A stretch of 64,000 nucleotides of DNA from Thermoanaerobaculia bacterium (lineage in GTDB: Bacteria; Acidobacteriota; Thermoanaerobaculia; UBA5066): NCBI GenBank assembly GCA_038214715.1, contig JBBQRP010000012.1, positions 43,634 to 107,633 on the forward strand, given 5' to 3'. Shown here piece after piece: positions 44,156 to 61,988 of this stretch. Numbering within the stretch: the stretch's first letter is position 1; the number at the start of each line of letters is the position of its first letter. Under the pieces are notes generated by a model, which had not been told where the DNA came from, ran no database searches, and saw nothing but the letters and a program-made list of their open reading frames with translations. Both the position numbers and the translations under genes were made by a program.

Positions 44156-44293
44156 TGCGCCCCATCGCGAGCTTGATGATGAGGGGCGTAGGGGCGTAGC
44201 CACGCTCGCCTCGTGCCGAAGGGACCCACCGGACCCGCGTCTCCCGCTCCAAAAAACAGCACGGAAAATCGGCAATCCGGCGCGGGCGCGCCG

Positions 44294-46492
44294 TCAGCCG
44301 GCCTCGACATCCGTGTCGCGCAGCTTGCGGCGCACGTCCATCACACCCGGCAGGGCCCGGAGGGAGACGAGGAGCCGCTCGAGGTGCCGCCGGTCCCGGG
44401 TCGTGACGCTCGCCTCGATCGAGGCGTTCCCGTCGTGACTCGTGCGGGCCTCGATCGAACGGATGTTCGAGTTCGCGGCCGAAAGCACCTGCGTGATGCG
44501 GGCGAGCATTCCCTGCCGGTCTTCCGTCCGAATCTCGAGGTCGACGGTGACAGTCGCGTCCTTCGCGGTCTGCCACTCGACGGGAATCTCGCGGCCGGGG
44601 TCGAAGAGAAGCGCCCGGACGTTCGAACAGGTGGTCGTGTGCACGGAGACGCCGCGCCCCCGCGTGACGTAGCCGACGACGTCGTCCCCCGGCACGGGCT
44701 GGCAGCATTTCGCGAGCGTCGCGAGAAGATCGTTCTCCCCCTTCACACGGATCCCGGTCGTTGCGCCGAAGGGAAGAACGCGCCGAACTGCGCTCGAGAT
44801 CGCCGCGACGCGGGAGGGCGGCGGCGGCGCGCCCTCGGGGGGCGAGGCGGCCTCGGGCAGGAGCTTCGCGACGAGAGCGCGCGGGGCGATCTTTCCGGAG
44901 CCCACGTCGGCGATCAGGTCTTCGACCTTGGCGACCCCGAAATCCCCGAGCACGGTGTCGAGAGCCTTCGACTCGAGGAGCTTCGCGAGGCTCTTCTTCC
45001 ACTTCTTGAGCTCGCGCTCCAGGAGGCGCCGGCCGATCTCGACAGACTGCTCCTTCTCGGCCGCATGAATGAAGCCCTTGATCTTGTTGCGGGCCCGCGA
45101 GGTGACGGCGAAGGAGAGCCAGTCCCGCGACGGATGCGCCGACGGCGCCGTCAGGATCTCGACGATGTCTCCGTTCTCGAGGGGAGACTTGAGCGGCACG
45201 AGGCGGCCGTTCACCCGCGCGCCGACGCAGTGGTGTCCGACGTCCGTGTGGACCCGGAAGGCGAAGTCCACGGGGGTCGCTCCCCTCGGGAACGCGTAGA
45301 CGGCTCCCTTCGGGCTGAAGGTGTAGACGTCGTCCGGGTAGAGGTCGATCCTGAGAGACGACAGGAACTCCCTCGGGTCCGAGACGTCCTTCGTCGTCTC
45401 GAGGATCTGGCGGAGGACCCCGACGTGCTCCTCGTGCCGCGCGTCCGTCCGCACGAGCTTCCCCTCTTTGTACTTCCAGTGGGCCGCGATGCCGTTTTCG
45501 GCCACGAGGTCCATCTCGCGCGTCCGGATCTGCACCTCGAACGGGGGCGCGCCCTCGGGCACGAGCGTCGTGTGGAGGGACTGATAGAAGTTGCGCTTCG
45601 GCATCGCGATGTAGTCCTTGATCCGGCCCGGCACGGGGCGCCAGGACTGATGGACGATTCCGAGCACGGTGTAGCAGTCGGGAATCGTGTCCACGAGCAC
45701 CCGGAACGCGAGGACGTCGTAGAGCTGTTCGAGAGGGATGGCCTGCCGGATGAGCTTCTGCCGGATCGACCAGTAGCGCTTGACGCGTCCCGTGATCTCG
45801 GCCTCGATGCCCATCGCCTTCGTCTTCGCGACGAGTTCGAGCCGGATCTTCTCGACGTTCGCGGCCGAGGCGGCCATCCGCTCGTCCACGGCGGCGCGCA
45901 GGGCGGCGAACTCCTCTGGATGGAGGAATCGGAACGAGAGGTCCTCGAGGTCGCCCTTCATCTTTCCCATGCCGAGGCGGTTCGCGAGCGGGGCGTAGAT
46001 CTCGAGCGTCTCGGCCGCCGTGGCGCGCTGCCGCTCCTCGGGCACGTGCTCGAGCGTCTGCATGTTGTGGAGGCGGTCCGCGAGCTTGACGAGGATGACC
46101 CTGAGATCGTCCGTCATCGCGAGGAGCATCTTGCGGAACGTCTCGGCCTGCTGGGCTTCCCGCGACGTGAACGCGTACTTGCCGATCTTCGTGACGCCGT
46201 CCACGAGGTGCGCGACGTCCGCGCCGAACAGCTCGCCGATGCGCTCCTTCGAGACCGACCCGTCCTCGAGGACGTCGTGAAGAAGGCCCGCGGCGATCGA
46301 TGCGTCGTCGAGCTTCATCTCCGCGAGCGTCATCGCGACCGCGAGCGGATGGACGAGGTACGGCTCTCCCGACGACCGGAGCTGGTTGCGGTGCTCGTGC
46401 GCGGACACGACGTACGCGCGGCGCAGCAGGTCCTCGTCCACCGAGGAGTGGTAGGACTCGACCTTCTCGAGGATGTCCTCGAACCGCAGCAC
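44294..46492 (-). CDS. rel: Bifunctional (p)ppGpp synthetase/hydrolase (RelA/SpoT homologue)
   Basis: HD domain (HPLAVAMTLAEMKLD), synthetase domain, TGS and ACT C-terminal domains. Confidence 0.92.
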   Translation of the reverse strand: MLRFEDILEKVESYHSSVDEDLLRRAYVVSAHEHRNQLRSSGEPYLVHPLAVAMTLAEMKLDDASIAAGLLHDVLEDGSVSKERIGELFGADVAHLVDGVTKIGKYAFTSREAQQAETFRKMLLAMTDDLRVILVKLADRLHNMQTLEHVPEERQRATAAETLEIYAPLANRLGMGKMKGDLEDLSFRFLHPEEFAALRAAVDERMAASAANVEKIRLELVAKTKAMGIEAEITGRVKRYWSIRQKLIRQAIPLEQLYDVLAFRVLVDTIPDCYTVLGIVHQSWRPVPGRIKDYIAMPKRNFYQSLHTTLVPEGAPPFEVQIRTREMDLVAENGIAAHWKYKEGKLVRTDARHEEHVGVLRQILETTKDVSDPREFLSSLRIDLYPDDVYTFSPKGAVYAFPRGATPVDFAFRVHTDVGHHCVGARVNGRLVPLKSPLENGDIVEILTAPSAHPSRDWLSFAVTSRARNKIKGFIHAAEKEQSVEIGRRLLERELKKWKKSLAKLLESKALDTVLGDFGVAKVEDLIADVGSGKIAPRALVAKLLPEAASPPEGAPPPPSRVAAISSAVRRVLPFGATTGIRVKGENDLLATLAKCCQPVPGDDVVGYVTRGRGVSVHTTTCSNVRALLFDPGREIPVEWQTAKDATVTVDLEIRTEDRQGMLARITQVLSAANSNIRSIEARTSHDGNASIEASVTTRDRRHLERLLVSLRALPGVMDVRRKLRDTDVEAG

Positions 46493-46554
46493 GATCCCAT
46501 TATCGCGGTACCCGTACGTTTGCGGATAATCTCCGCGCGACCAAAGGAGCCCCG

Positions 46555-47205
46555 ATGGATCTCTTGAAGCAGTTCGTGGACGTCTTCCTGCACCTCGACG
46601 TGCATCTCGCCGAGGTGACGCGGAACTACGGAACGTTCACGAACCTCATCCTCTTCGCGATCGTCTTCGCGGAGACCGGGCTCGTCGTGACCCCCTTTCT
46701 TCCGGGCGACTCGCTGCTCTTCACGGCGGGCGCGCTCGCCTCGCTCGGCAGCCTCAACGTCTGGGTCCTCTTCCTCCTGCTGTCTCTCGCGGCGGTCCTG
46801 GGCGATACCGCGAACTACTGGATTGGAAAGAGGATCGGGCCCCGCGCGTTCGACGGGTCGATCCGCTTCCTCAAGCTCGAGCATCTCCGAAAGACCGAAG
46901 CCTTCTACGAGCGGCACGGGAAAAAGACGATCATCCTCGCGCGCTTCGTCCCGATCGTGAGGACGTTCGCGCCCTTCGTCGCCGGCATCGGCTCGATGAC
47001 CTACAGGACTTTCATCGCCTACAACCTCATCGGCGGCGTCCTCTGGGTCGGAATCTGCGTCTTCTCGGGCTACTTCTTCGGGAACATCCCCGTCGTGAAG
47101 AAGAACTTCTCACTCGTGGTCCTCGCGATCATCGGCATCTCGATCGTTCCCCTCCTCTGGGAGTGGGGAAAGGCCGTCCGGGCCGGCCGGAGCGTGCGCG
47201 CGTGA
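46555..47205 (+). CDS. DedA family membrane protein
   Basis: DedA/SNARE-associated motif (TPFLPGDSLLFTAGALA, ILARFVPIVRTFAPFVAG). AAAGGAG RBS. Confidence 0.85.
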   Translation: MDLLKQFVDVFLHLDVHLAEVTRNYGTFTNLILFAIVFAETGLVVTPFLPGDSLLFTAGALASLGSLNVWVLFLLLSLAAVLGDTANYWIGKRIGPRAFDGSIRFLKLEHLRKTEAFYERHGKKTIILARFVPIVRTFAPFVAGIGSMTYRTFIAYNLIGGVLWVGICVFSGYFFGNIPVVKKNFSLVVLAIIGISIVPLLWEWGKAVRAGRSVRA

Positions 47206-48509: not shown

Positions 48510-49736
48510 TCAACGGCTCTTGGCCGCCGCGGGCTTGCCCTTCGGAGCGGGAGCGGAAGCCTGGGGCTTCAGCGCGGCGCGCTTCTGCTTCGCCTCCTCC
48601 CACACGACGACGAGCGGCGCCGCGATGAAGATCGACGAGTACGTCCCGACGATGATTCCGATCATCATCACGAACGCGAACCCGCGCAGGACCTCCCCCC
48701 CGAGAAAAAAGAGGACGACGACGACGACGAACGTGAGCACCGAGGTCAGCACCGTCCGCGACAGCGTCTGGTTGATCGACGTGTTCACGAGCTCGGGGAG
48801 CGGCGTGCGCTTCGACTTCTCGCGGTTCTCGCGGATGCGGTCGAAGACGACGACCGTGTCGTTCACGGAATAGCCGATGAGAGTCAGGAACGCCGCCACG
48901 ACCGTGAGCGAGATCTCGACGTTCAGGAGCGAGCAGATTCCGAGGGTCGCCCACGTGTCGTGAATGAGAGCGACGACCGCGGCCGAGCCGAAGGAGGCCG
49001 ACTTGAACCTCCACGCGATGTACAGGAGCATCGCGGCCCACGAGAACAGGATCGCCCAGGTCCCCTTCTCGCGCAGGTCTTTTCCGACCTGAGGACCGAC
49101 GTTTTCAGCCGAGAGGAGCGTGAACGGGCCGGAGACCGTCTTTGCCTTGAGCCACTCGCCGGTCGCCGGTGAGACTCCCTCGGTTTTCGAGGCTTCGTCG
49201 ACGGAATGGAAGAGCCCCTTCTCCGATCGCGCCGCGATCAGGGCCTCGACTTCGCGCCCGTATTCGACCTTGGGGTCTGCGTTCGGGCGCGTCGAGAGCT
49301 TCTCGGGATCGTCGGCGATCAGCTTCATGAGGAGCGTGTCCGCTCCGTTCAGGTTCAGGTCGAAGGCAGAGGGGCTCGCGCCCTCGGGGAACAGCGCCTT
49401 CGTGAGCGCGGCCGTCACTTCCTTCGAGAGGTCGCGGCCTTCCTTCTTCTCGAGTGGAACACGGAGGAGAACCTGGTTCTTCTCGGGCTTGTCGAACCGC
49501 TGCACGGACACCACGTTGACGTTCGCGGCTTCGACGATCTTCCTCACCTCGTCCTCGTCGGGGGACTTCGCAAACCCGTAGACGATCTGGGCCCCGCCCG
49601 TGAAGTCGATGCCGAGCTTCGGGCCGCCCTTCGCGACCAGCGAGATCGTGCCGATGACGATCGTGAGAATCGAGATCGAGATCGCGATCCACTTGACCTT
49701 GAGGAAGTCGATGTTCGTGTTGTGAAACAGGCGCAC
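48510..49736 (-). CDS. secF: Protein translocase subunit SecF (with C-terminal basic extension)
   Basis: NIDFLKVKWIAISISIL...GIDFTGG and a SecD/SecF TM bundle. Confidence 0.9.
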   Translation of the reverse strand: MRLFHNTNIDFLKVKWIAISISILTIVIGTISLVAKGGPKLGIDFTGGAQIVYGFAKSPDEDEVRKIVEAANVNVVSVQRFDKPEKNQVLLRVPLEKKEGRDLSKEVTAALTKALFPEGASPSAFDLNLNGADTLLMKLIADDPEKLSTRPNADPKVEYGREVEALIAARSEKGLFHSVDEASKTEGVSPATGEWLKAKTVSGPFTLLSAENVGPQVGKDLREKGTWAILFSWAAMLLYIAWRFKSASFGSAAVVALIHDTWATLGICSLLNVEISLTVVAAFLTLIGYSVNDTVVVFDRIRENREKSKRTPLPELVNTSINQTLSRTVLTSVLTFVVVVVLFFLGGEVLRGFAFVMMIGIIVGTYSSIFIAAPLVVVWEEAKQKRAALKPQASAPAPKGKPAAAKSR

Positions 49737-49752
49737 GTTTTTCCGCTCCGTG

Positions 49753-51384
49753 TCAGATGGAAAGTGTCTCGACGCGCTCCTTCGGACCGTAGATCAGGTC
49801 GAAGAGCAGGTGCGACACGAAGACCGCGGTGAAGACCGAGGCCAGGAGTCCGATGACGAGGGTCACGGCAAAGCCCTTCACGGGACCGGTGCCGAACTGG
49901 AACAGGAAAAGGGCCGCCATGATCGTCGTGACGTGCGTGTCGACGATCGTTCCCCACGCGCGCTTGAAGCCGAGGTCGATCGCAGCCTTCGGCGCCTTGC
50001 CGTTGCCCATCTCCTCGCGGATGCGCTCGAAGATGAGGACGTTCGAGTCCACCGCCATGCCGATCGTGAGGATGAACCCCGCGATCCCCGGCAGCGTGAG
50101 CGTCGCGTTGATGTACGCCATCGCGCCGAGAAGGATCAGAGAATTCAGGATCAGCGCGACGACGGCGTTCACGCCCGAGAGCCTGTAGTAGAGGACGACC
50201 GCGATGAAGACGCAGATCATTCCGACGACCGAGGCAAGGACGCCCTTCTTGATCGAGTCGAGGCCGAGCGACGGCCCGACCGTGCGCTCCTCGAGAATGA
50301 TCATCTCCGCGGGGAGAGCGCCCGAGCGGAGCACGAGCGACAGGGCGTCAGCCTTCTCCGGGGTGAAGTTTCCCTCGATGATGCCGCTTTCCTTGATCTG
50401 GCTGTTGATGTTCGGCGCGGACTGGACTCGCTTGTCGAGCACGATCGCGAGGTGCTTGTTGATGTTCTCGCCCGTGACCTTCGCGAACTTCGTGGCACCG
50501 GCCGCGTTCAGGAAGAACATGACGGCCGGCTGGTTGAACTTGTCGCGATCCACGCGGGCGTTCTTCATGTCCCGCCCCGTGACGGCGGCGGCCCGCTTGA
50601 GGACGTACCAGACGGGAGTCCGCGTGCGCGCGTCGGCGTCCTCATTGAAGCCTTCGACGATCTCGAGGTCGTCCGGCACCGTTCCGCCGTAGGCCGAGCG
50701 GGCCCCCTCCATCGTCGGATAGGGGCCGCCCCGGTCGTCCACGAGCTTCAGCTCCAGGAGACCGGTCGTTCCAATGATCTCCTTGACGCGGCTGGGATCG
50801 TCCACGCCCGGGATCTCGACCACGATCCGGTCGTTGCCCTGACGCTGGATGACGGGCTCGGCGACGCCGAGCGCGTCGACGCGATTCCGGATCGTCTCGA
50901 CCGCCTGGCGCGTCGCCTGGTCTTCGATCGTGATCCTCTCGGAGTCCTTGAACGAGATCTTCCACTCCCGCCCGCGCTGGTCGACGGCCCACGCGTTCGG
51001 CGGGAGGACCGCCGAGACGAGATCCTTCAGCTTCGCGGCGTCCGTCTTCTCGTCGATCTTCAGCGTGAAACCCGTACCGTCCGCGGGTCCGGCCGGGGCG
51101 AGGACCACGCCGCGCTTGCCGCCTTCGTCCTTGAGACGCTCGAGCGCGTCCTGCGCTTCGACGCGCAGCGCGTCGGCCGTCTTTACCTGCATGACGAGGT
51201 GAATGCCCCCGCGAAGGTCGAGGCCGAGCTTGAGGCCGTTCTTGAGAACGTCCGAAATCGTCGGATTCGGGGGCGCTGTCGGAGACTTCTTCAGCGCCTC
51301 GTGGCCCCGCCACCAGTACGCCCCGATCGAACCGAGAAGGACGGCCAACGTCACGCCGACGCGCCATCCGGTGGGCTTGTTCAC
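49753..51384 (-). CDS. secD: Protein translocase subunit SecD
   Basis: SecD periplasmic domain and TM bundle. GTG start at 51384 has a GGAGG RBS. The 182-aa Arg-rich N-terminal extension in the track is rejected. Confidence 0.85.
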   Translation of the reverse strand: MNKPTGWRVGVTLAVLLGSIGAYWWRGHEALKKSPTAPPNPTISDVLKNGLKLGLDLRGGIHLVMQVKTADALRVEAQDALERLKDEGGKRGVVLAPAGPADGTGFTLKIDEKTDAAKLKDLVSAVLPPNAWAVDQRGREWKISFKDSERITIEDQATRQAVETIRNRVDALGVAEPVIQRQGNDRIVVEIPGVDDPSRVKEIIGTTGLLELKLVDDRGGPYPTMEGARSAYGGTVPDDLEIVEGFNEDADARTRTPVWYVLKRAAAVTGRDMKNARVDRDKFNQPAVMFFLNAAGATKFAKVTGENINKHLAIVLDKRVQSAPNINSQIKESGIIEGNFTPEKADALSLVLRSGALPAEMIILEERTVGPSLGLDSIKKGVLASVVGMICVFIAVVLYYRLSGVNAVVALILNSLILLGAMAYINATLTLPGIAGFILTIGMAVDSNVLIFERIREEMGNGKAPKAAIDLGFKRAWGTIVDTHVTTIMAALFLFQFGTGPVKGFAVTLVIGLLASVFTAVFVSHLLFDLIYGPKERVETLSI

Positions 51385-51506
51385 GAACGCAACCTCCGGA
51401 CGCGGGCCCGTCCGGAAGGCGGCAGGAGCCACCCGTTCGTCAGGAAACCGCGGGATGCGCCCGGCTTCTCCGGGCGAACCGGCGGAGTCTACCAGAAGCC
51501 CCGTGC

Positions 51507-54416
51507 TTAAGGTTCCTCTGGACGCGGAAGGGACGGCCGGGACGAATAAGGAGCAAGGGACACACGCGTCAGCCTCTGAACGATCTCGGGAGGGAGCGAG
51601 GCGAAGAGCCGCTCGTGCCTCCAGGCGTGACACGACACGACGAGGACGGGGCGCTCCCCGAGAACGTCCGTCGCGAGGAACCGCATCACGGCGAGAAAGC
51701 GCTCGTCGTCCGCGCCCACGAGGGGATCGTCGAGCAGGAGGGGCACGCCCGCGACCCCCGTCCCGAGATAACGCAGGGTCGCGAGGCGCGCCGTCAGGTG
51801 CAGCTGTTCTCGCGCCCCGGTCGAGAGGCCGGACCGGATCTCGCCCTTCGTCGCGACGCGCCCTCCGCGGACGAGCACCGAGAGGGAAAGGTCGTCGCCG
51901 AACTCGAGAGCCTCGTACGGCGTCTGCCACGTCGCGAGGATCTCCTTCGAAGCGGCCTGCAGCCCGCGCCGAAAGTCGCCGTAGACGGACGAAGCCGCGG
52001 AGAGAAGAGTCGTCCGGGCGAGCTCGAGCGCGTCCCGGAAGAGGATCGCGCGGGCCTGCGACGCCTCGGCGGACGCGAGATCCTCCTCCACGGAGCGCGC
52101 CATCTCCCCGCCCTCGCGCGCGGCGTCTGCGAGCTCCCGCTCTGCCGCGACGCGGGCGTTCTCGGCGGCGGCCATCGCAGACCGCGCCGCGTCCGCGGCC
52201 CGGCGCGCCGCCTCTGGTGTCTCGGGGAGTGTGAGCGCCTGTGAGTCGACGCCGAGTTGCGCCGCGCGCCGCGCGCCTTCGTCGTCGAGACTCGCGAGAC
52301 GCGCGGCGAGATCGGCCTCCTCGCCTTCGCCACCGCCTTCGCGGCGGGCCGGAAGCTCGTGTTCAACGAGCCGTTTCAGGCGCGCGGCCTTACGCCGGCC
52401 GGCTTCCGCCGCGACGAGCCCCTCGAGAAGGGGCAAAGAGCCCGGAATCCCCATCCGCGAAAGGGCGTCGCGGAGCCGCCCCTCGATCTCACGGATGTCC
52501 CCGTCCTCGCGCAGGAGCCGCTCCGCCTCCCGGGCGAGGACCTCGTCCCCCATTCGCGCGTCCTGATGACAGCGCCCGAGGTCCGCGAGGAACGAGAGCG
52601 CACGCTCGGACTCCTCGGGAGCAGGAAGCCCTTCCGGAAGCGACAGCATCGTGCGATGCGGCCGGAGAGCCTCTCCCAGCGCCTGCAGGCGCTTGATCGC
52701 GGCGTCGCGACGGGCCGTCAAGGCGACCATGTGGCGGCGGGGCTCTTCCGCCCCGCGCGCGCGCCGATTAGCCTTGAGCATCGCGGACGCGTCGCGATAG
52801 CCGGCTCCCCGCGCGAGCCGGTCGAGCCGGAGACGCAGGCCGGACAGGCGTTTCCGAAGCTCCACGGCCTTGCGCCGGCAGCTGCCCTCGTCTTCGCGGG
52901 CGCGCGCTTCGTCCGAGAGGCGATGGCGCACGGCGCGCGCCCACGCGATTCCTCCGAAGAGTCCGAGCGAGAGGACGAATACGGCGAGCGATGCGACCAT
53001 GTAGACGGGCGCGCCCGCGGCGCGGAGCGCGAGCCACGCCACGAAGGGAACGCAGACGGCAGCCGCGACGACGAGGGAGCGCGCGAGCCGCACGCGCTGT
53101 TTCCGCTCGCCCGCGGCGATGGCCGCCGTCGCGCCTGCGTCGGCCACGCGCCGGTCCAGCTTCACGCCTTCGAGCTCGAGCCCCGCCCTCTCCTCCTCCG
53201 CGCCCGCGAGAAACGCCCGATCCTCGGGGGAGAGCGCATCGAGGCGGACGAAATCCTCCGCGAGCCCGTCCCGTCTGAGGACGCTCCAGCGCTCCTCCAG
53301 GAGCTCTTCCGCCTCCGAGCGATCCCGCGCGGCCGAGACTTCTCCACGCAGCGTCTCCTCCAGCGCCGCGCGCTCGGATTCACCGAGCCGGAACGCGGGC
53401 CCGAAGCGGCGCGCGAGCTCCTCTGCCTCCCGGGCCGCGCCGCGCACGCTCTCCGCCAGCGCCACCCGGGCCGTTTCGAGAGCCTGTGGCCTGTTCCCGC
53501 GCTCCTCGCGAAGGCGGTCCACGGCAGCGAGTGCGGTCTCCGAGAAGAGCTCCGCTTCGGGCGCGAGTTCGCGGACCTCGTCCTCGGCGGCCCGTCGCTT
53601 CCTGATCGCGGTGCCGAGCGTCTCGCGCCGCCGCGCGAGCGCGCGGCGATGGGCGAGAACCTCCGCGAGCGCGGCGATCTCGGCGGCGCGCCCTGCCTCG
53701 TCGCGGGCCCGCGCGCACCCCGAGAGACGCGCGGAGGCCTGAGCGGCCGCGGCGCGCCGGGCCGCGAGCTCCGCGCGCCTCTGGCGAAGCGCTTCCACGC
53801 GCTTGCCGAGCCTCGCGATTTCCGTATCCACTGAAATTTTCATGCCGGCCGAGGGTTCCGGCATTTCGGCCCGGACGGCCTCGAGAGCCTTGAGGGCGCG
53901 GACGACGGAGGCCTCTCCTCCCCCCGAGTCCGCGATGCGCGCGAGCTCGACCGTCAGGCCCGAATCGAGGGAATCCCGGTCGAGGACGTTCTGCGAGACG
54001 TAGGCGGTCGCGCGGAAGAGCGCTTCCGTCAACCCACCCGTCACCGTCTGGCCGAACACGTCGCGCCCGCCCGCGCGCAGGAACTCCTGCGTGCAGTCGA
54101 GGCCCTGGTCGCGGTCGACGACACGGAGCGTTCCCGCATCGAGGTCGCGGTCGACGGACCAGCGCGTTGTCCCGGCGGTCACGTCGAGCCCGACGCGCAG
54201 GGGTGCGCCGCTCCGCGGCCTTCTCACTTCGCGCACGCGCCCCGCGATGCCGCGCGTCGACGGGAGGCCGTAAAGCGCCGTGACGATCGCCTCGCAGAGC
54301 GTCGTCTTGCCCGTTTCGTTCGGATCGACGGCGAGGAGGACGCGCCCTTCCGGCCACGCGAGATCGAGATCGCGAAGAGCGCCGAACCCGTCGATCCGGA
54401 TGCGTTCGATCTTCAC
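51507..54416 (-). CDS. SbcC/Rad50-like ATPase with central transmembrane hairpin (YhaN/SbcE-like)
   Basis: N-terminal Walker A (RIDGFGAL...VDPNETGKTTLCEAIVTALYG), long coiled coils, two adjacent hydrophobic helices near the middle, and a C-terminal signature/Walker B (LSTGAREQLHLTARLA...VPLLLDDP). GTG start in a GTGA overlap with the nuclease gene stop. Confidence 0.8.
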   Translation of the reverse strand: MKIERIRIDGFGALRDLDLAWPEGRVLLAVDPNETGKTTLCEAIVTALYGLPSTRGIAGRVREVRRPRSGAPLRVGLDVTAGTTRWSVDRDLDAGTLRVVDRDQGLDCTQEFLRAGGRDVFGQTVTGGLTEALFRATAYVSQNVLDRDSLDSGLTVELARIADSGGGEASVVRALKALEAVRAEMPEPSAGMKISVDTEIARLGKRVEALRQRRAELAARRAAAAQASARLSGCARARDEAGRAAEIAALAEVLAHRRALARRRETLGTAIRKRRAAEDEVRELAPEAELFSETALAAVDRLREERGNRPQALETARVALAESVRGAAREAEELARRFGPAFRLGESERAALEETLRGEVSAARDRSEAEELLEERWSVLRRDGLAEDFVRLDALSPEDRAFLAGAEEERAGLELEGVKLDRRVADAGATAAIAAGERKQRVRLARSLVVAAAVCVPFVAWLALRAAGAPVYMVASLAVFVLSLGLFGGIAWARAVRHRLSDEARAREDEGSCRRKAVELRKRLSGLRLRLDRLARGAGYRDASAMLKANRRARGAEEPRRHMVALTARRDAAIKRLQALGEALRPHRTMLSLPEGLPAPEESERALSFLADLGRCHQDARMGDEVLAREAERLLREDGDIREIEGRLRDALSRMGIPGSLPLLEGLVAAEAGRRKAARLKRLVEHELPARREGGGEGEEADLAARLASLDDEGARRAAQLGVDSQALTLPETPEAARRAADAARSAMAAAENARVAAERELADAAREGGEMARSVEEDLASAEASQARAILFRDALELARTTLLSAASSVYGDFRRGLQAASKEILATWQTPYEALEFGDDLSLSVLVRGGRVATKGEIRSGLSTGAREQLHLTARLATLRYLGTGVAGVPLLLDDPLVGADDERFLAVMRFLATDVLGERPVLVVSCHAWRHERLFASLPPEIVQRLTRVSLAPYSSRPSLPRPEEP

Positions 54417-55624
54417 CGGTCCTCCGCGTCCGGCGGGCGGACCGGCCTTCCGAGGAGCGCGTCGCGTCCCAGGCGGAGGGCGAGATCCACGACGCGCCGC
54501 CGCGCGTCGCCTTCGGCCGCGGCGCGGAGGGTCGCGAGGTCGGACGCGAAGCGGCCCTCCGCCGAGCGGGGACCGGGCTCGGGCGCGGGCGGTTCCGTTT
54601 CGTCGCGCACGGCAAGGTGCTTCACGCGCAACCCAACCGGCCTCAGGATGTCCGCCGGACGGGCTCCGAACGTCTGCGTCCCCGTGAGCGTGACGCGCAC
54701 GAGGTCCGCGGCCGCGACGCCCGCGTCCCGGAACGCGGCCTCGACTCTCTCGACGAGGGGGCCGGCTTCGAGCTCCGTCACGTCCACCGTCAGATCCCGG
54801 ATGACGCGCGCGTCGGCCGGGACCCTCTCGACGACGATCGGAGATCCGTCCGCGGGCAGGGTCACGCGCAGGAAGAAACGCGGCCCGGCCTCGTCCAGAC
54901 CGCGCCCCGTCGGACATCCCGAATAGGCGCCGCGCGGGCGCCCGTCGTCACCCACGACGACGTGCGCGTGGTGGTGGTGTCCGAGCGCGGCCCACGAGAA
55001 GCCCGCCCCGAAGAGCTCGCCCGCGGAGAATGGCGCCGTACGCTTCGTGCCGCGCGGAGAATCGGCGCCGGTGTAGGACTCGAGCGATCCGTGCAGGAGG
55101 AGCAGCGCGTGCGGCGTCGGGGGCCGCGCGGGCGGAGGCGCGAGCGGGCGCTCGACAACGACGGCGGAGGAGAGGAACGCGCGCCCGACGACCGTCACGT
55201 CGTCACGCCCCGGGAAGGGGACGGCCGCCCACTCCGGGCCGCGAAAGACGACGACGTTCTCGGGCCACGGCCTCATTCCGAGCGCGGCGAGGAGCGCCGG
55301 GTCGTAGTAGCCGCCCGGCCCCGCGAAATCGTGGTTTCCGGGCGCCACGAAGACGGGCCGCGGCGCGAACGAGGCGAACGCCTCGAGCAGCCTGTGAATC
55401 GTCGCGGGCGGAACGTTCTCGGCGTCCCACAGGTCCCCCGGAACGAGAAGCGCTTCCGCACCGCAGGAGACCGCGGCGGCCACCGCACGCTCCGCGGCGG
55501 CGTCCACTTCGTCGCGGCGCGCCGCCCGCGTTTCGGGCGTGAACGAGAGTCCGCCCCCGGTCAGCGCGGAGCCCAGGTGCCAGTCCGAGGACTGCAGAAA
55601 CGTCAGGGGGCGCCCGGAGGTCAC
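54413..55624 (-). CDS. SbcD/Mre11-like calcineurin-type nuclease (YhaO/SbcF-like)
   Basis: SDWHLG, PGDLWD, GNHD and GHHHH metallophosphoesterase motifs, followed by a C-terminal extension. Confidence 0.8.
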   Translation of the reverse strand: MTSGRPLTFLQSSDWHLGSALTGGGLSFTPETRAARRDEVDAAAERAVAAAVSCGAEALLVPGDLWDAENVPPATIHRLLEAFASFAPRPVFVAPGNHDFAGPGGYYDPALLAALGMRPWPENVVVFRGPEWAAVPFPGRDDVTVVGRAFLSSAVVVERPLAPPPARPPTPHALLLLHGSLESYTGADSPRGTKRTAPFSAGELFGAGFSWAALGHHHHAHVVVGDDGRPRGAYSGCPTGRGLDEAGPRFFLRVTLPADGSPIVVERVPADARVIRDLTVDVTELEAGPLVERVEAAFRDAGVAAADLVRVTLTGTQTFGARPADILRPVGLRVKHLAVRDETEPPAPEPGPRSAEGRFASDLATLRAAAEGDARRRVVDLALRLGRDALLGRPVRPPDAEDR

Positions 55625-55638
55625 CCCCTAGTTTCGCA

Positions 55639-55965
55639 CTACGTGGCGGATTCCTTCGAGTCAGCCTCGCCGGTGGTCCCGCCTATGGCGCTACGGTTCA
55701 CCTTGATCTTCACCGTGTCGGCGATCTTCAGCCAGACGATCTGGTCCTCGACCTGCGCGATCGTGCCGTGAATGCCGCCGCTCGTGACCACGCGATCTCC
55801 CTTTTTCAGGGCCGCGAGGAGCTCCTTCTGCTTCTTCTGCTGCTTGCGCATCGGCGCGAGAAGAACGAAGTAGAAGATCACGAACATGAGGACGTACGGG
55901 ACCATCTGGACGAGCGGCGAGGCCGCCGCCGAGGGCGCCGCCTGCAGGAGGTGGAACGGGTTCAT
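55639..55965 (-). CDS. yajC: Preprotein translocase subunit YajC
   Basis: Single TM helix plus the YajC motif (KGDRVVTSGGIHGTIAQVED). ATG overlaps the tgt stop (ATGA). Confidence 0.8.
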   Translation of the reverse strand: MNPFHLLQAAPSAAASPLVQMVPYVLMFVIFYFVLLAPMRKQQKKQKELLAALKKGDRVVTSGGIHGTIAQVEDQIVWLKIADTVKIKVNRSAIGGTTGEADSKESAT

Positions 55966-57101
55966 GGGACGTCCTTTCCGATGGTCCGCGACCACTTCGG
56001 GAGCGCTTCCGCCGCCCAGGCCGCGAACCGTTTCGCATCGAGAGCCTCACGGATTCCCCGCATCAAGTCAAGGATCGCCGTCAGGTTGTGAACCGTCATG
56101 AGCGTCGCGGCGGTGGGCTCCCCCGCGACGAAGAGATGGCGCAGGTACGCTCGCGAGTGCCGGCGGCAGGTCGGACAGCCGCACGCCGGGTCGGGCGGCG
56201 CGGCGTCTTCCCGGTACCTTGCGTGCTTGATCGCGAGGGCGCCTTCCGACGTGTAGAGGAGGCCGTGACGCGCGGCGCGTGTCGGAAGGACGCAATCGAA
56301 CATGTCGAATCCCTGCGCGACCGCGTCGATGAGGTCGTCCGGCCGCCCGACCCCCATGAGGTAGCGGGGCCGGTCCACCGGAAGAAGAGGCGCCGTATGC
56401 GCGACCATCGCGCGCATTTCCTCCTTCGGCTCGCCGACCGAGAGGCCCCCGCAGGCGATCCCGTCGAACGGGAGAGCCGCGATCGTGGCGGCGCTCTCGG
56501 CCCGGAGAGACGGGAACATCCCGCCCTGCACGATTCCGAAGAGCGCGCCGCGCGTTCCCGAGATCGCGTCCCGGCGTTCGGCCGCTCTCTTCGCCCAGCG
56601 GTGGGTGAGGTCCATGGACGCGCGGGCGGCGTCCTCGGTCGCCGGATACGGGGTACATTCGTCGAGGACCATCGCCACGTCCACGCCGAAGTCGGCGAGC
56701 TGGAGGTCGACGGCGCGCTCGGGGGTGAGGGCATGGGCCGACCCGTCGATGTGGCTCCTGAAAAGGACTCCGTCCTCGGAGAGCGTCCGGTTTCCCGCGA
56801 GGGACATGACCTGATAGCCGCCGGAGTCGGTCAGGATGGGCCGGTCCCAGCCGATGAAGCGATTGAGTCCGCCGAGTTTTTTCACGACGTCGCCGCCCGG
56901 CCGGAGCATCAGGTGGTACGTGTTCGCGAGCACGATCTCCGCCCCGGCCGCCTCGAGGTCGCCCCACCGGGCGGCCTTCACGGTGCCCGCGGTTCCCACC
57001 GGCATGAACGCGGGAGTCTCGACGGTTCCGTGGTCCAGTGTGAGGCGTCCGCGGCGCGGTCCTGAGCCGCCCGAAGGGGACCGCAGCTCGAAGCCCAGCA
57101 T
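55962..57101 (-). CDS. tgt: Queuine tRNA-ribosyltransferase
   Basis: TPAFMPVGTAGTVK, a zinc site (CGCPTCRRHSRAYLRHL) and a TIM barrel. ATG at 57101; the track ORF extends to 57293. Confidence 0.9.
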   Translation of the reverse strand: MLGFELRSPSGGSGPRRGRLTLDHGTVETPAFMPVGTAGTVKAARWGDLEAAGAEIVLANTYHLMLRPGGDVVKKLGGLNRFIGWDRPILTDSGGYQVMSLAGNRTLSEDGVLFRSHIDGSAHALTPERAVDLQLADFGVDVAMVLDECTPYPATEDAARASMDLTHRWAKRAAERRDAISGTRGALFGIVQGGMFPSLRAESAATIAALPFDGIACGGLSVGEPKEEMRAMVAHTAPLLPVDRPRYLMGVGRPDDLIDAVAQGFDMFDCVLPTRAARHGLLYTSEGALAIKHARYREDAAPPDPACGCPTCRRHSRAYLRHLFVAGEPTAATLMTVHNLTAILDLMRGIREALDAKRFAAWAAEALPKWSRTIGKDVP

Positions 57102-57106
57102 CCCGG

Positions 57107-58300
57107 CTAAATGCCGACGCGCGCCGTCAGGGTGAGCCCGAGCGCGCTCTTGTCGGTTCGGTACCAGCCCCCGAGATCCACCTTCGCGGGCCCGATGACG
57201 ACGCCCGCTCCCCCCGTGAAGGCGGGGGTCTTGTCCGGCGATTCGAGGTTCACCGAAGCGCCGCCGCGCACGACGACGACGAGAAGCGTCCACTCGATTC
57301 CCGCTCCGAGCTGCCGCACGCGAAGGTTGTCGACGAGCGTCTCGTTCGCGGTGAGGTCGTAGTCCGCGGCGACGAGGATTCCCAGGATAGGGACCTTCAC
57401 GGACGCCCCGATGCGGGCCTGGCGGCCCCAGGCGACGGAGCGGCCGCGGTCCGCCGCGGGGCCGTCGTCGGCGAAGGGAAACGAAGGCTTGTTGATTCCG
57501 CGCACGACGCCGCCGACGTGGACGGGCCCGAGAGACACCAGACCCCCGACGTCGATCGAAAAGTCCGTGTGAGAGCGCGTACGGCCCGTGAGGGCGCGCT
57601 GTGCGAGGTTCCAGGGATCTCCGACCTCGGTCGTGAACGCGGACTCCTCTTTCGTGTACGTCGAGCCGAACAGCGCGTGAACCGAAGCGCCGACCGTGAC
57701 GCGTCCAAGGAAGAACGACATCGACTTGCCGAGGGCGACGTCTTTGAGCTCGAGACCCCGGAAGAGCGCGCCCGAATCGTTGAAGGCGATCGAGGTGGCC
57801 GGGTTCGATCCGAGCGCCGTGTGCACGAGGTCCGTCCGCGCCGTGAGGCCGCTGAAACCCCAGTCCGTGAACGAAAGCTCCCAGCCGCTGTGCGCGAGCG
57901 CGAGGCCGACCACGCCGGTTCCCGTGACGCCGTTTCCAGGATCGCCGAGCGTGCGGAGGGCTTGCACGACGTCCGCGTAGCTCTGCGGCTGCGACCCGGA
58001 CGCGAGCGACAGGGGGCTGTTTCCCGAGACGACGCGGAGCGGGCCGAGGAAGTCGCCGCTCTCCCGGGTGAGGAGCCCGGCCGAAACCGCGAACGCGAAG
58101 TTCCGGGCCGGGACGGCGGCGGGATTGTCGATTCCGGCGGCGACGTCAGACCCGAGACCCACGGACGCTCCGCCGAGAGCGACCGAGCGCGCTCCGAAGG
58201 GTGAGAAGGGCATCTGCGCCAGGCCCGCCCCCGCCCACAGGACCGTGGCCGCGAGAGAGGCGAGGACCCTCCGTGGGAACGAGGAGGACCGCGTCGGCAT
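57107..58300 (-). CDS. Putative outer-membrane beta-barrel protein (hypothetical)
   Basis: Signal peptide (VLASLAATVLWAGAGLAQ) and alternating amphipathic beta-strand pattern rich in Gly/Ser/Thr. No family assignment. Confidence 0.55.
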   Translation of the reverse strand: MPTRSSSFPRRVLASLAATVLWAGAGLAQMPFSPFGARSVALGGASVGLGSDVAAGIDNPAAVPARNFAFAVSAGLLTRESGDFLGPLRVVSGNSPLSLASGSQPQSYADVVQALRTLGDPGNGVTGTGVVGLALAHSGWELSFTDWGFSGLTARTDLVHTALGSNPATSIAFNDSGALFRGLELKDVALGKSMSFFLGRVTVGASVHALFGSTYTKEESAFTTEVGDPWNLAQRALTGRTRSHTDFSIDVGGLVSLGPVHVGGVVRGINKPSFPFADDGPAADRGRSVAWGRQARIGASVKVPILGILVAADYDLTANETLVDNLRVRQLGAGIEWTLLVVVVRGGASVNLESPDKTPAFTGGAGVVIGPAKVDLGGWYRTDKSALGLTLTARVGI

Positions 58301-58354
58301 CGGGCTCCAGTGTACGGTGAGAGGGTGCGTTGACCGTGAAAAAGCAAGGGTGCT

Positions 58355-58717
58355 ATGTTCCGGCCTCGTTTTGCAGGAGGCGAATTGCCCGATCTCGGAA
58401 ACAAACACAACTGCTTCAAGTGCGGAACGAAGTTCTACGACCTGAGGAAAACGCCCGTGCACTGCCCGAAGTGCGGCGCCGACCAGAAGGACGCTCCTCC
58501 GCAGCCGACGTCTCCCGTCGTGCTCCACGCCGCGCGCCGCGCGAAACGCGACGAGTTCGCGGATCCCGACGTCTTCGACCGCAACCGCGAGGACGAAGAC
58601 GTGGCCACCGGCGAGCCCGAGGACCCGGCCGCAAAGCGCGTGGATGACGACGAGGAGCTTCCGCTCGGTGAAGCCAAGACGCTCGAAGGCACGGAAAGCG
58701 GCGAAGACGACTACTGA
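58355..58717 (+). CDS. Small C4 zinc-ribbon protein with acidic C-terminal tail (FYDLN-type)
   Basis: LGNKHNCFKCGTKFYDL...CPKCG plus a D/E-rich tail. An in-frame alternative TTG start at 58385 has a GGAGG RBS. Confidence 0.6.
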   Translation: MFRPRFAGGELPDLGNKHNCFKCGTKFYDLRKTPVHCPKCGADQKDAPPQPTSPVVLHAARRAKRDEFADPDVFDRNREDEDVATGEPEDPAAKRVDDDEELPLGEAKTLEGTESGEDDY

Positions 58718-60144: not shown

Positions 60145-61020
60145 TCATTTGGAGGCCCAGACCTTCAGGAGCTGCGCGGCCTCTTCCTGCGTCTTCCGGT
60201 TCTCCACGAGGTACTCCGGGTCCGGTGTTTCCGCGACGATCTTCTCGAGCATGGCGCGGGCCTCCGCGCGGCGGGCGCTCTCGTAGTCCCAAATCGCCTC
60301 GGCGAGGAACTGGCGCCCGACGAGGTTGTGCGGCCCAACCTCGACGCCGAGACGGAGGTTCTTCAACGCCTCCGTCCGCGACGCCCAGCCCGTGAGGAAC
60401 GGCACGGAGGGGGTCTGGTGATGCAGCCGTCCGAGCACGCGGTACCCTCCCCCTCCGTCGTACGCAGGGTCGAGAAGGATCACCGCCTGCGCATAGTCGC
60501 GGATTTTCGCGGCCGCCCCCTGTTTCACGGCCGCGCCTTTCCCGAAGGCGAGCGCCCACTTTCCCCAGTCCACGGACGCCCACAGGAACGTCGGGACGAC
60601 GGACGAATTGCCCACGAGGTAGGGGACGAGCTCGACCGGCGTCGCCTTCGCGAGGTCCCGGCTGGAATGGCGGGCGGCCTCGCGGCGGAGAATCGCGAGC
60701 GACTGCTCGGCCACCGTGCGCCCCTCGTCGAAGATCGTCTTTTTCACCGCGGAATCGTCCGTCGTGTGCTCACCCTTGAAGTAGAGCGCACGCATGAGGC
60801 GCCACCGCACCTCGAGCGAGTCCGGCTCCGCGGCGAGGGCGGTGCGACAGGCGGCGATCGCAAGGTCGATCGGCGCCGAAAGGGCGTGCCCGCCCGTCGA
60901 GCCTTCGGCGCGGTGGCTCCACAAGCGGTCTAGATCGGCGTTCCTCGGGGCGGACCCTTCCGCCGCGAGCAGGCACGGCAGGAGGACGACGAGCGCGAGA
61001 AGGCGGGAGAGTCGTCGCAT
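60145..61020 (-). CDS. Secreted hypothetical protein (helical, TPR-like?)
   Basis: Signal peptide MRRLSRLLALVVLLPCLLAAEG. No confident family. The track ORF extends to 61065. Confidence 0.5.
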   Translation of the reverse strand: MRRLSRLLALVVLLPCLLAAEGSAPRNADLDRLWSHRAEGSTGGHALSAPIDLAIAACRTALAAEPDSLEVRWRLMRALYFKGEHTTDDSAVKKTIFDEGRTVAEQSLAILRREAARHSSRDLAKATPVELVPYLVGNSSVVPTFLWASVDWGKWALAFGKGAAVKQGAAAKIRDYAQAVILLDPAYDGGGGYRVLGRLHHQTPSVPFLTGWASRTEALKNLRLGVEVGPHNLVGRQFLAEAIWDYESARRAEARAMLEKIVAETPDPEYLVENRKTQEEAAQLLKVWASK

Positions 61021-61082
61021 GGGTCCACTATACTGGCGCGCCTCTTGCGAAGAAGGCTCACCCACGAATTCGAGGTGCCTCC

Positions 61083-61403
61083 GTGGCCGATCAGGATCCC
61101 AAACCCGACTCCCAGCCTCCGCCCCTCCAGTTCTCGATCGACGACACGGTCGCGAACGGGGTCTACGTGAATTTTGCGAACATCATCCACAATCCGGCGG
61201 AGTTCGTCCTCGACTTCGGGCGCGTCGTTCCGGGACGGAACGACGTCCGCGTCCTCTCGCGCGTGCTGACGACTCCCGTCCACGCAAAACAGCTCCTCAA
61301 CGCCCTCGCGCAGAACGTCGCGCTCTACGAGAAGACGTTCGGGGCGATCCGGACGGACTTCGAAACGCAGCGCGCCGGCACCGACTCCTTCCGTCCCAAC
61401 TGA
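61083..61403 (+). CDS. DUF3467-like small protein
   Basis: YVNFANIIHNPAEFVLDFG motif characteristic of DUF3467. GTG start. Confidence 0.55.
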   Translation: MADQDPKPDSQPPPLQFSIDDTVANGVYVNFANIIHNPAEFVLDFGRVVPGRNDVRVLSRVLTTPVHAKQLLNALAQNVALYEKTFGAIRTDFETQRAGTDSFRPN

Positions 61404-61424
61404 CCCACAAGGAAGACCAGACCG

Positions 61425-61940: not shown

Positions 61941-61988
61941 CGCTCCCCGATCCACTTTAGTCCCCTGGCCTCTGGCAGAATCGGCGCG

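Follow-up and report, generated by a model that had tools for sequence, protein, structure and literature searches.

Two genes lie between yajC and secD on the minus strand of the window, the stretch of 64,000 nucleotides that was analysed. The first (54413..55624, with a GTG start at 55622-55624) encodes a 403-residue nuclease of the Mre11/SbcD type, similar to YhaO/SbcF. The second (51507..54416) encodes a Rad50/SbcC-like ATPase of 969 residues, similar to YhaN/SbcE, with a predicted membrane hairpin at the apex of its coiled coil. The stop codon of the nuclease gene overlaps the start codon of the ATPase gene in the sequence GTGA, and the two genes are evidently coupled in translation, as in SbcCD and Mre11-Rad50. 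Upstream of the pair is the open reading frame of yajC (55639..55965, minus strand, stop codon at 55639-55641), whose orthologues carry PF02699. Its stop codon is separated from the nuclease gene by 14 nt (55625..55638, minus strand), two more than the sequence-only reading had counted, and the gene calls of relatives give a gap of 28 nt. Downstream are the open reading frames of secD (49753..51384, minus strand, GTG start at 51384) and then secF (48510-49736), with Pfam SecD and SecF domains on the respective orthologues. The spacer between the ATPase gene and secD was correctly given as 122 nt (51385-51506), and the reading frames, coordinates, GTGA overlap and motifs quoted earlier are all present. 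The G+C content of the pair, 73-75% compared with 63-68% in the neighbours, is raised by the first and second codon positions, as the proteins are rich in Ala and Arg, and its GC3 (0.85-0.88) is close to that of the neighbours (0.86-0.92).

The nuclease contains the motifs SSDWHLG, PGNHDF and LGHHHHAH and matches Pfam Metallophos with an E-value of 7e-9. The nearest solved sequence is that of Thermotoga maritima Mre11/SbcD (E 5e-9), and Mre11/SbcD accounts for all 50 of the PDB matches listed by Foldseek for the AF2 model of the nuclease (pLDDT 85). Residues D14, H16, D64, N97, H98, H178, H216 and H218 are invariant among 37 homologues. We take these eight to be the metal-binding and catalytic positions, as mapped from Pyrococcus furiosus Mre11, and the nuclease is predicted to retain the full two-metal active site of Mre11. 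Two C-terminal helices of the model (355-369 and 373-390) probably resemble the helix pair that binds Rad50.

The ATPase retains the head of Rad50, with Walker A, Q-loop, signature, Walker B and H-loop. Its motifs NETGKTT, LSTGAREQ and LLLDDP are all found. Walker A (VDPNETGKT, residues 30-38, 54303..54329, minus strand) aligns to the Rad50 P-loop, and N33, E34, G36 and K37 are conserved in at least 90% of sequences. The ABC signature LSTGAREQ, Walker B LLLDDP and the D-loop (residues 864-898, 51723..51827, minus strand) align to LSGGERIA and LILDEP of P. furiosus Rad50. In at least 90% of the family, aspartate (D897) occupies the position of the catalytic glutamate in Walker B, so that DD stands where Rad50 has DE, and the ATPase cycle may therefore differ from that of Rad50. 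A profile of the family matches both lobes of archaeal Rad50 with E ~1e-15. Pfam AAA_27 (PF13514) is matched with 35.3 bits (cutoff 22) over positions 1-56 of its 206-position profile, and distant relatives match AAA_23 equally well or better. In the AF2 model (pLDDT 85), the two head lobes are separated by long helices, and the structural matches found by Foldseek are Rad50, Smc5/6, condensin, MukB, JetC and LmuB. The T. maritima Mre11, archaeal Rad50 and Foldseek matches bear out the original assignment of the pair as Mre11/SbcD and Rad50/SbcC-like.

Where Rad50 and SbcC carry a zinc hook, the apex of this ATPase is formed by two hydrophobic helices (residues ~447-464 and 473-493; 52938..53078, minus strand) that a short turn connects into a hairpin. 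The hairpin had been noticed in the sequence, and its two segments have Kyte-Doolittle means over 19 residues of 2.18 and 2.23. The model places one helix at 397-464, a turn at 465-470 and a second helix at 471-497. Sequence rich in Arg and Lys lies on either side. No C-x-x-C occurs anywhere in the 969 residues. Of 99 homologues, distant ones included, 98 have the central hydrophobic stretch, the exception being a fragment of 549 residues. Among full-length cluster representatives of the family it is present in 114 of 116, and none of the 116 has a central CxxC. A hydrophobic hairpin without a hook is thus a family trait. Conserved residues in it are P457 (43 of 60 sequences), L484 (58 of 60), G488 and W492 (54 of 60). 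Hydropathy and the predicted structure suggest that the hairpin most likely crosses the inner membrane twice, which would place both arms and the nuclease-ATPase head on the cytoplasmic side, the head being an estimated few tens of nanometres away from the membrane.

A comparable architecture has been described in Bacillus subtilis. SbcE has a hydrophobic, proline-containing central domain without CxxC, is partnered by YhaO/SbcF, functions both in double-strand-break repair and in transformation, and is seen in polar foci (PMC2811018; Krishnamurthy et al. 2010). The pair described here has the same arrangement of nuclease followed by ATPase in overlapping or adjacent genes, and its ATPase likewise combines a length of ~960 residues and an SMC/Rad50-like head with a hookless, hydrophobic central domain that contains a conserved proline. 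The connection runs through Paenibacillus proteins, to which YhaN is applied as a database name, and not through the B. subtilis sequences themselves: one distant homologue of the ATPase (P0099) comes from Paenibacillus, and its close relatives bear the name YhaN in NCBI, UniRef and JGI. In hhalign, the N lobe of the ATPase matches an alignment of Paenibacillus YhaN with a probability of 99.5% (E 1.3e-22) and the C lobe with 97.4% (E 1.2e-11). Head motifs shared with Paenibacillus YhaN are GFG, NEaGKsTL, the GGG box, LSxGxxEQLxL, PLLLDD and CH. The nuclease aligns to the product of the gene upstream of a Paenibacillus YhaN-type gene with 99.1% probability (E 5.9e-19, 292 columns), so that the homology extends over ~290 residues. 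Since these profile comparisons tie both proteins to the Paenibacillus pair, the resemblance to YhaN/SbcE, which the sequence-only reading had raised, proves to be right. The head lobes are ~29-30% identical to those of Paenibacillus, but the coiled coils and hairpins can hardly be aligned in sequence, and the central regions of the Acidobacteriota and Paenibacillus clades align with a probability of 27%. The pair also differs in its setting between yajC and secD, instead of upstream of yhaM, and in its host, as it is found in Thermoanaerobaculia-type MAGs of the Acidobacteriota, whereas SbcEF has been discussed in the literature for Gram-positives/Firmicutes. The ATPase family comprises 7,843 cluster representatives at E <= 1e-30. 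Database labels for YhaO/YhaN are PF13514 (AAA_27) and COG4717. These comparisons place the two genes in the YhaO/YhaN (SbcF/SbcE) family of repair proteins, which has been little studied and is a bacterial relative of Mre11-Rad50/SbcCD.

Every fetched locus of close relatives (Thermoanaerobaculia-type MAGs) that spans that side has the order tgt-yajC-nuclease-ATPase. Across loci, the identity of yajC ranges from 52 to 96%, and that of the ATPase falls to ~50%. The dN/dS of the pair is 0.08-0.13, similar to that of tgt and secF, and purifying selection on it is strong. No full-length relatives were found on 72,556 plasmids or among 50,697 phage records. Taken together, the shared gene order, native GC3, dN/dS of ~0.1 and lack of plasmid or phage relatives make a defence island or a recent insertion unlikely, and the description of the pair as inserted is not supported. 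The pair is evidently an old, vertically inherited core module of this acidobacterial class, fixed directly behind tgt-yajC.

Its position inside a single tgt-yajC-secDF operon, as had been proposed, is doubtful as well. Immediately after the ATPase stop codon is a promoter-like extended -10 element, TGgTAGACT (51486..51494, minus strand), which a generic consensus promoter scan missed. Each of the 34 distinct loci contains TA[G/A]ACT. In 18 of these it is preceded by TGn and no -35 box is found; the other 16 have no TGn but carry a -35 box (TTGACG, TTGCCG or TTGACC) 17-18 nt upstream, 15 of them as scored by script and the sixteenth, offset by 2 nt, with the same boxes by eye. The two features thus occur in a complementary pattern. 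The spacer downstream of this element (51385..51485, minus strand) appears to form a structured secD leader of three hairpins, the last of which overlaps the GGAGG ribosome-binding site. Among 42 loci, the spacer measures 109-150 nt in all but L047, where it has 65 nt, and in every one it leads to a GTG-initiated secD. A covariance model (R1) locates the leader in 35 loci and at this position only, with 90% of cells paired and a conserved structured part of ~95 nt. Its covariation is 0.203, compared with 0.097 after shuffling (the observed value was reached by 0 of 500 shuffles) and at most 0.079 when slid, and hairpin 2 has compensatory changes at six of six pairs. No Rfam family matches the leader. 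The description of the spacer as rich in hairpins therefore holds for covariation across relatives but not for single-sequence folding, which is not significant (z = -1.8; 9 of 200 shuffles fold equally well). Thus, a separate promoter and a conserved structured leader appear to serve secDF, and in one lineage (L026) tgt-yajC-nuclease-ATPase is followed by icd instead of secDF. The pair more likely belongs to the tgt-yajC unit than to the secDF transcript and is probably co-transcribed with tgt-yajC. The GTGA overlap and the short upstream gap support this placement. No terminator was detected downstream of the ATPase gene, and read-through into secDF is therefore possible.

By combining these data, it is possible to outline how the complex might work. 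With good confidence, the pair can be considered a YhaO/YhaN-type, membrane-tethered complex for ATP-driven processing of DNA ends, inherited vertically as a core module behind tgt-yajC. End processing is the most likely function, its DNA substrate and repair role being deduced by analogy. The two long coiled-coil arms of the ATPase would end in the helical hairpin held in the membrane. By analogy with SbcCD/MR, binding of ATP would close the pair of heads around a DNA end or hairpin, and its hydrolysis would then license the bound nuclease dimer to cut. As cutting would take place on a membrane tether, the complex would act on DNA at the membrane or entering through it. Candidate substrates are chromosome ends that have broken close to the envelope, or else incoming DNA, in line with what has been proposed for B. 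subtilis SbcE.

The pair could instead be canonical SbcCD in disguise, the ordinary hairpin/DSB nuclease of the genome, with the hydrophobic stretch serving as a protein-protein dimerisation element. The heads and the nuclease are clearly of the MR/SbcCD type: the nuclease has the Mre11 fold, the full metal-binding set and the probable Rad50-binding helices, and the ATPase has a bipartite Rad50-type ABC head with an antiparallel coiled coil. JGI annotations label relatives 'SbcCD subunit'. However, the ATPase has no CxxC hook, and with the curated NCBIfam models for SbcD, SbcC and Rad50 the scores fall far short of the cutoffs (for instance, 30 bits where 77.65 are required and 17 where 700 are required). 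Two segments of ~20 residues with hydropathy above 2.1 and Arg-rich flanks are typical of a membrane hairpin, and in B. subtilis SbcE exists alongside SbcC (PMC2811018). This possibility is improbable. The earlier reading had regarded a uniformly conserved, canonical SbcCD with a non-membrane segment as evidence against itself; relatives do carry the pair as a core feature at the same position, but it is not canonical SbcCD and its hairpin scores as membrane-spanning by hydropathy.

Equally, it is unlikely that the membrane-tethered ATPase-nuclease destroys entering foreign DNA as an anti-phage or anti-plasmid system like Lamassu, Gabija, Septu or Wadjet, a function that had also been suggested. 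Several defence systems are indeed built on ATPase-nuclease pairs, a membrane position would suit the interception of incoming DNA, and weak PADLOC matches to GajA, PtuA and LmuB were obtained. These matches are confined to a P-loop region of ~55 residues of the ATPase (best E 2.8e-6), with none for the nuclease. The SMC-type LmuB and JetC share the fold but are generic Foldseek matches ranked under Rad50, and with them, as with the P-loop/OLD-type GajA and PtuA, the sequence similarity is at the level of the P-loop. The pair stays at one fixed housekeeping locus in all the fetched loci of close relatives, no other defence genes adjoin it, and it has neither an island nor a mobile context; a defence function is thus unsupported. 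We know of no description of a membrane hairpin in the Lamassu, Wadjet, Gabija or Septu ATPases.

Coupling to the Sec machinery is very unlikely. In such a scheme, the complex would cooperate with YajC/SecDF, for instance in resolving DNA-membrane tethers that arise from coupled transcription, translation and insertion, or the hairpin would need YajC/SecDF/YidC for its own insertion, which would keep the genes together. The predicted membrane insertion of the ATPase, the tight junction with yajC and an order tgt-yajC-pair-secDF kept across the whole class, with ATPase identity down to ~50%, are in its favour. However, FYDLN_acid, relA, VTT and TerC in the wider neighbourhood are equally syntenic in relatives, so that conserved order need not mean coupling. 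The separate promoter-like element of secDF and the locus with icd also argue against it, as does the absence of yajC and secD within up to 6 kb on each side in the fetched distant relatives from other phyla. In two distant lineages, the pair instead lies directly behind genes for an AddB/AddA-like helicase-nuclease, neighbours that link it to DNA repair; sbcDC of B. subtilis follows addBA in a like manner.

The nuclease and the ATPase encoded between yajC and secD add a new and phylogenetically distant member to the known, barely studied family of YhaO/YhaN (SbcF/SbcE). The genes follow one another on the minus strand in the order tgt (an open reading frame at about 55962-57095), yajC (55639-55965), the 403-aa Mre11/SbcD-type nuclease (54413-55624), the 969-aa Rad50/SbcC-like ATPase (51507-54416), secD (49753-51384) and secF (48510-49736). 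The location of the pair, noticed in the sequence-only reading, is confirmed, and all the nuclease and ATPase motifs which that reading quoted are found in the translated ORFs. The two ORFs share a GTGA overlap with a GGAGGA box upstream, and a spacer of 122 nt separates the ATPase from secD. The junction between yajC and the nuclease had been described as tight and 12 nt in size; it is tight, but measures 14 nt by the ORF coordinates.

The nuclease gives a Pfam match to Metallophos, and among proteins of solved structure it is closest in sequence to T. maritima Mre11/SbcD and P. furiosus Mre11. When its AlphaFold2 model (pLDDT 85, pTM 0.77) is compared with the PDB by Foldseek, all 50 matches listed are Mre11/SbcD chains. 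All of 37 homologues keep residues D14, H16, D64, N97, H98, H178, H216 and H218 unchanged; by the P. furiosus Mre11 numbering these eight correspond to the metal-binding and catalytic positions. The nuclease is thus similar to that of canonical SbcCD and Mre11-Rad50 in its phosphoesterase motifs with all of these residues, as well as in its fold. Two C-terminal helices (355-369 and 373-390) appear to be placed like the helix pair with which Mre11 binds Rad50. The nuclease does not reach a curated SbcD threshold, scoring 30.3 bits with TIGR00619 against a cutoff of 77.65, and a homologue search with the nuclease returned close relatives alone.

The ATPase matches Pfam AAA_27 (PF13514), the YhaN-type N-terminal domain, with 35.3 bits against a cutoff of 22, the match spanning the first 56 profile positions and no more. 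The curated SbcC, Rad50 and RecF models are all far under threshold, the Rad50 model PRK03918 scoring 16.8 bits with a threshold of 700. A profile of 60 members of the ATPase family matches both lobes of archaeal Rad50 (E about 1e-15), and in this alignment NETGKT corresponds to the P-loop, LSTGAREQ to LSGGERIA, LLLDDP to the LILDEP of P. furiosus Rad50, and SCH to the H-loop. Because LLLDDP (residues 893-898, window 51723-51740) aligns with LILDEP, the Walker B motif has an Asp at the position of the catalytic Glu, as it does in at least 90% of the family. Here the ATPase differs from canonical SbcCD and Mre11-Rad50, having DD and not DE, and this might slow or alter the ATPase cycle. The YhaN of Paenibacillus likewise has an Asp in Walker B for the catalytic Glu of Rad50/SbcC. 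The AlphaFold2 model of the ATPase (pLDDT 85) consists of two head lobes linked by long helices, which span residues 196-830 and include an unbroken helix (397-464), a turn (465-470) and a further helix (471-497). The Foldseek matches of this model, namely Rad50, Smc5/6, condensin, MukB, JetC and LmuB, represent the general SMC/Rad50 fold.

The apex of the coiled coil is formed by two hydrophobic helices, residues ~447-464 and 473-493, with 19-residue Kyte-Doolittle means of 2.18 and 2.23. There is no C-x-x-C anywhere in the 969 residues; the apex, unlike that of canonical SbcCD and Mre11-Rad50, is a hydrophobic hairpin without a zinc hook. Of the 99 ATPase homologues from the first search, 98 have the central hydrophobic stretch, among them those of 23-29% identity; the exception is a 549-aa fragment. 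None of the 99 has a CxxC. Full-length representatives of different 50%-identity clusters behave in the same way: 114 of 116 have the stretch, at a median relative position of 0.49, and a central CxxC is found in none. The conserved positions of the hairpin are P457 (kept in 43 of 60 sequences), L484, G488 and W492, and Arg and Lys abound in the flanks on either side. Positively charged flanks are expected on the cytoplasmic side according to the positive-inside rule, and the hairpin is for this reason predicted to cross the membrane twice, with both arms of the coiled coil in the cytoplasm. Residues 433-518 (window ~52863-53120) give marginal family-profile matches (E ~0.02) to the hydrophobic helical-hairpin region of the ClyA-family pore-forming toxins MakA, VCA0883 and Nhe L1, in which the tip of a bundle of helices likewise carries a hairpin that inserts into the membrane; these matches are probably compositional.

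In the literature searched, the YhaN/SbcE-type family is the subject of a single study, a 2010 paper on B. subtilis, and a search for PF13514 or AAA_27 gave nothing relevant. SbcE (YhaN) is described there as an SMC-like protein, nearest to SbcC, that lacks a CxxC, with N- and C-terminal head lobes set apart by heptad regions of ~300 residues and a unique central domain, the first half of which is hydrophobic and holds a conserved proline (Krishnamurthy et al. 2010, PMC2811018). The protein is insoluble on expression, its gene adjoins the SbcD-like yhaO (SbcF), and it has roles in double-strand break (DSB) repair and transformation and forms polar foci; membrane anchoring is not addressed in that paper (PMC2811018). 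The acidobacterial ATPase resembles this description in matching both Rad50 lobes, in the long helices modelled between them, in its hydrophobic center with a conserved proline and no CxxC, and in the position of its gene directly downstream of an SbcD/Mre11-like nuclease gene.

The link to YhaN is provided by P0099, a weak match in the first homologue search, which is a Paenibacillus protein whose close relatives are labelled 'Uncharacterized protein YhaN' or 'YhaN AAA domain-containing protein' in NCBI, UniRef and JGI. In hhalign the ATPase profile aligns with the Paenibacillus YhaN over the N lobe (99.5%, E 1.3e-22, 199 columns) and the C lobe (97.4%, E 1.2e-11), the latter taking in LSxGxxEQLxL, PLLLDD and CH. 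The hairpin region aligns weakly (27%), with the proline of the first transmembrane segment nevertheless in register. The nuclease profile aligns with the product of the gene upstream of P0099 (99.1%, E 5.9e-19, 292 columns). Because of these matches for both proteins and the published description of SbcE, the pair is best filed, on sequence comparison, in the YhaO/YhaN family, the homology being established through Paenibacillus proteins that databases name YhaN. An exact 24-mer and a degenerate pattern derived from B. subtilis primers gave nothing or chance matches in metagenome contigs. The likeness to YhaN (SbcE) suggested in the sequence-only reading is correct, with PF13514 above its gathering cutoff and hhalign connecting both proteins.

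The ATPase family is large, with 7,843 cluster representatives at E <= 1e-30, and the relatives fetched come from Acidobacteriota, Eisenbacteria, Chloroflexota, Planctomycetota, Methylomirabilota and Firmicutes. Among close relatives (about 45 loci fetched, ATPase identity 87% to about 50%; labelled Thermoanaerobaculia, Holophagales or Acidobacteriota, and one Acidithiobacillales), the order tgt-yajC-nuclease-ATPase is found in every locus that spans the upstream side, and secD-secF are next wherever the contig continues. The sole exception is L026, an acidobacterial MAG locus (8862-9300) with an ATPase 50% identical, where the ATPase is followed by an isocitrate-dehydrogenase-like gene (icd, identified from its translated N-terminus) in place of secDF; the pair therefore travels with tgt-yajC and not with secDF. 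Distant relatives (26-40% identity; Eisenbacteria, Polarisedimenticolia, Limnocylindria, Chloroflexi, Methylomirabilota, Verrucomicrobiia and Planctomycetota) mostly keep the pairing of nuclease and ATPase, and neither yajC nor secD lies beside their pairs within flanks of up to 6 kb on each side. In two distant lineages, L008 (1-8883) and L087 (1-9357), the pair is directly downstream of AddB/AddA-like helicase-nuclease genes, with a UvrD-type helicase and, in L008, a PDDEXK nuclease domain. In B. subtilis, sbcDC comes after addBA in the same manner. The AddAB-like neighbourhood is a hint, though an indirect one, of a role in DSB repair or transformation. Four Clostridia relatives (L078, L079, L083 and L085) have far shorter ATPase ORFs of 599-753 aa, that of L085 coming after a 315-aa nuclease. 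They may represent a subfamily with a truncated coiled coil and were left out of the family evidence because of this length.

Comparison of the loci also changes the picture of the spacer before secD. All but one of 42 loci have a spacer of 109-150 nt, the exception being L047 with 65 nt, and its 3' end in the relatives is always GGAGGT, 5-7 nt and GTG. In all 34 distinct loci the spacer opens with TA[G/A]ACT. In 18 of them, the window included, TGn stands just upstream and there is no -35, whereas TGn is missing from the remaining 16, where TTGACG, TTGCCG or TTGACC lies 17-18 nt upstream (15 scored by script; the sixteenth, offset by 2 nt, has the same boxes by eye). An extended -10 and a -35 box are complementary alternatives typical of real sigma-70-type promoters, and because of this pattern the element is read as the promoter of secDF itself, abutting or overlapping the stop codon of the ATPase. 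A generic promoter/terminator scan found no promoter, and the element emerged from the comparative alignment alone. Together with a structured leader it occupies 51385-51494 on the minus strand, and the same position in L001-L048.

The leader (51385-51485, minus strand) is roughly 95 nt long and has three hairpins; a covariance model built from the window's own subgroup finds it in 35 loci, at this position only. The spacer had been called hairpin-rich. Its single-sequence fold is unexceptional (z = -1.8), and it is covariation across relatives that supports the structure: 90% of the alignment cells pair, and in this model-fitted alignment the covariation score is 0.203 versus 0.097 for shuffled alignments (0 of 500 reach 0.203) and at most 0.079 with slid partners. 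Hairpin 2 has compensatory changes at all six of its pairs, and hairpin 3 overlaps the ribosome-binding site. Rfam gives no match at the gathering threshold, either for the leader or elsewhere in the 64 kb. The leader could be a cis-regulator of secDF in this class, as yet undescribed. Pairing of an invariant ACTCC box with the GGAGG ribosome-binding site was considered and dropped, as the box shares positions with the -10 hexamer and no covariation is seen at the inner pair. Likewise, a SecM/VemP-like arrest peptide at the C-terminus of the ATPase was rejected, the last ~15 residues being variable, of low confidence and about 100 nt from the ribosome-binding site. Considering the promoter-like element and leader, L026 and the tight upstream junctions, it is more fitting to regard the pair as the end of a tgt-yajC unit, followed by secDF with an apparent promoter of its own. 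Read-through from the pair into secDF is possible, since the generic scan showed no minus-strand terminator after the ATPase gene.

The original interpretation had the pair inserted into the operon, with defence against phages as one possible function. The higher G+C of the pair could suggest a recent horizontal insertion, but the excess is at codon positions 1 and 2, the two proteins being 43-46% Ala, Arg, Gly and Pro, and GC3 is neighbour-like (0.85-0.88 vs 0.86-0.92). Both genes have dN/dS values of 0.08-0.13 against four close relatives, a range shared by tgt and secF. This, the native-like GC3 and the fixed gene order contradict a recent insertion. That the pair is a defence system is unlikely: the PADLOC matches of the ATPase are confined to residues 1-58 (best E 2.8e-6), the nuclease has none, and no full-length model of the known families (Lamassu, Gabija, Septu, Wadjet, PARIS) is matched, the similarity being at the level of the P-loop. 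No full-length relative occurs in 72,556 plasmids or 50,697 phage records, where weak partial matches were found on 8 plasmids and on no phage, and a patchy, island-like or mobile distribution is at odds with the one fixed locus in all close-relative loci fetched. That interpretation is supported in part: the SbcD/SbcC-like nature of the pair, the hydrophobic hairpin and the link to YhaN stand.

Another alternative, for this class, is a functional link between the pair and the translocon components YajC-SecDF, in which case the conserved secD leader would be a new cis-regulator that keeps the two units in balance. The complex might remove or process DNA that is kept at the membrane when transcription, translation and insertion are coupled, or co-expression with yajC might be needed to insert the hairpin at the coiled-coil tip. 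This tie has little support and is very unlikely.

The pair may act in a manner analogous to SbcCD/MR. ATP would bring two ATPase heads together so that they clamp a DNA end or hairpin, and on its hydrolysis the nuclease dimer would be placed for cutting. At their tips the coiled coils would sit in the membrane instead of being linked by zinc. As each arm has about 250 residues, the head, if the arms are extended, would hang below the membrane at an estimated distance of a few tens of nanometres. DNA that is broken or forms hairpins close to the envelope would be a likely substrate, as would incoming DNA. There is no second SbcCD or paralogue of the pair within the 64-kb window.

YhaN/SbcE-type proteins can be regarded as Rad50 relatives in which the zinc hook is replaced by an apparent membrane anchor. 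The family has thousands of diverged clusters. Taken alone, this locus contributes little, but three points do come out of it: the gene pair is a core one under selection in a phylum of Gram-negative type, the family as a whole shares the hydrophobic hairpin and the DD Walker B, and the module is able to adjoin AddAB-like genes; together these sharpen the question of the role of a membrane-tethered MR complex. The conserved promoter and structured leader of secDF may be the more testable new item.

Upstream of tgt there are a gene for a TraF_2-like outer-membrane beta-barrel (minus strand, within 57107-58717), which is missing from L003 and L005, and a small FYDLN_acid zinc-ribbon gene (58355-58717, plus strand), both assigned by position relative to the genes called in L001, which has the same neighbourhood. 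Very long ORFs run antisense or out of frame to real genes such as relA and secD (44213-46567, plus; 49750-51510, plus; 60930-63008, minus; and others). Such ORFs are artefacts that ~68% G+C commonly produces, and not genes.
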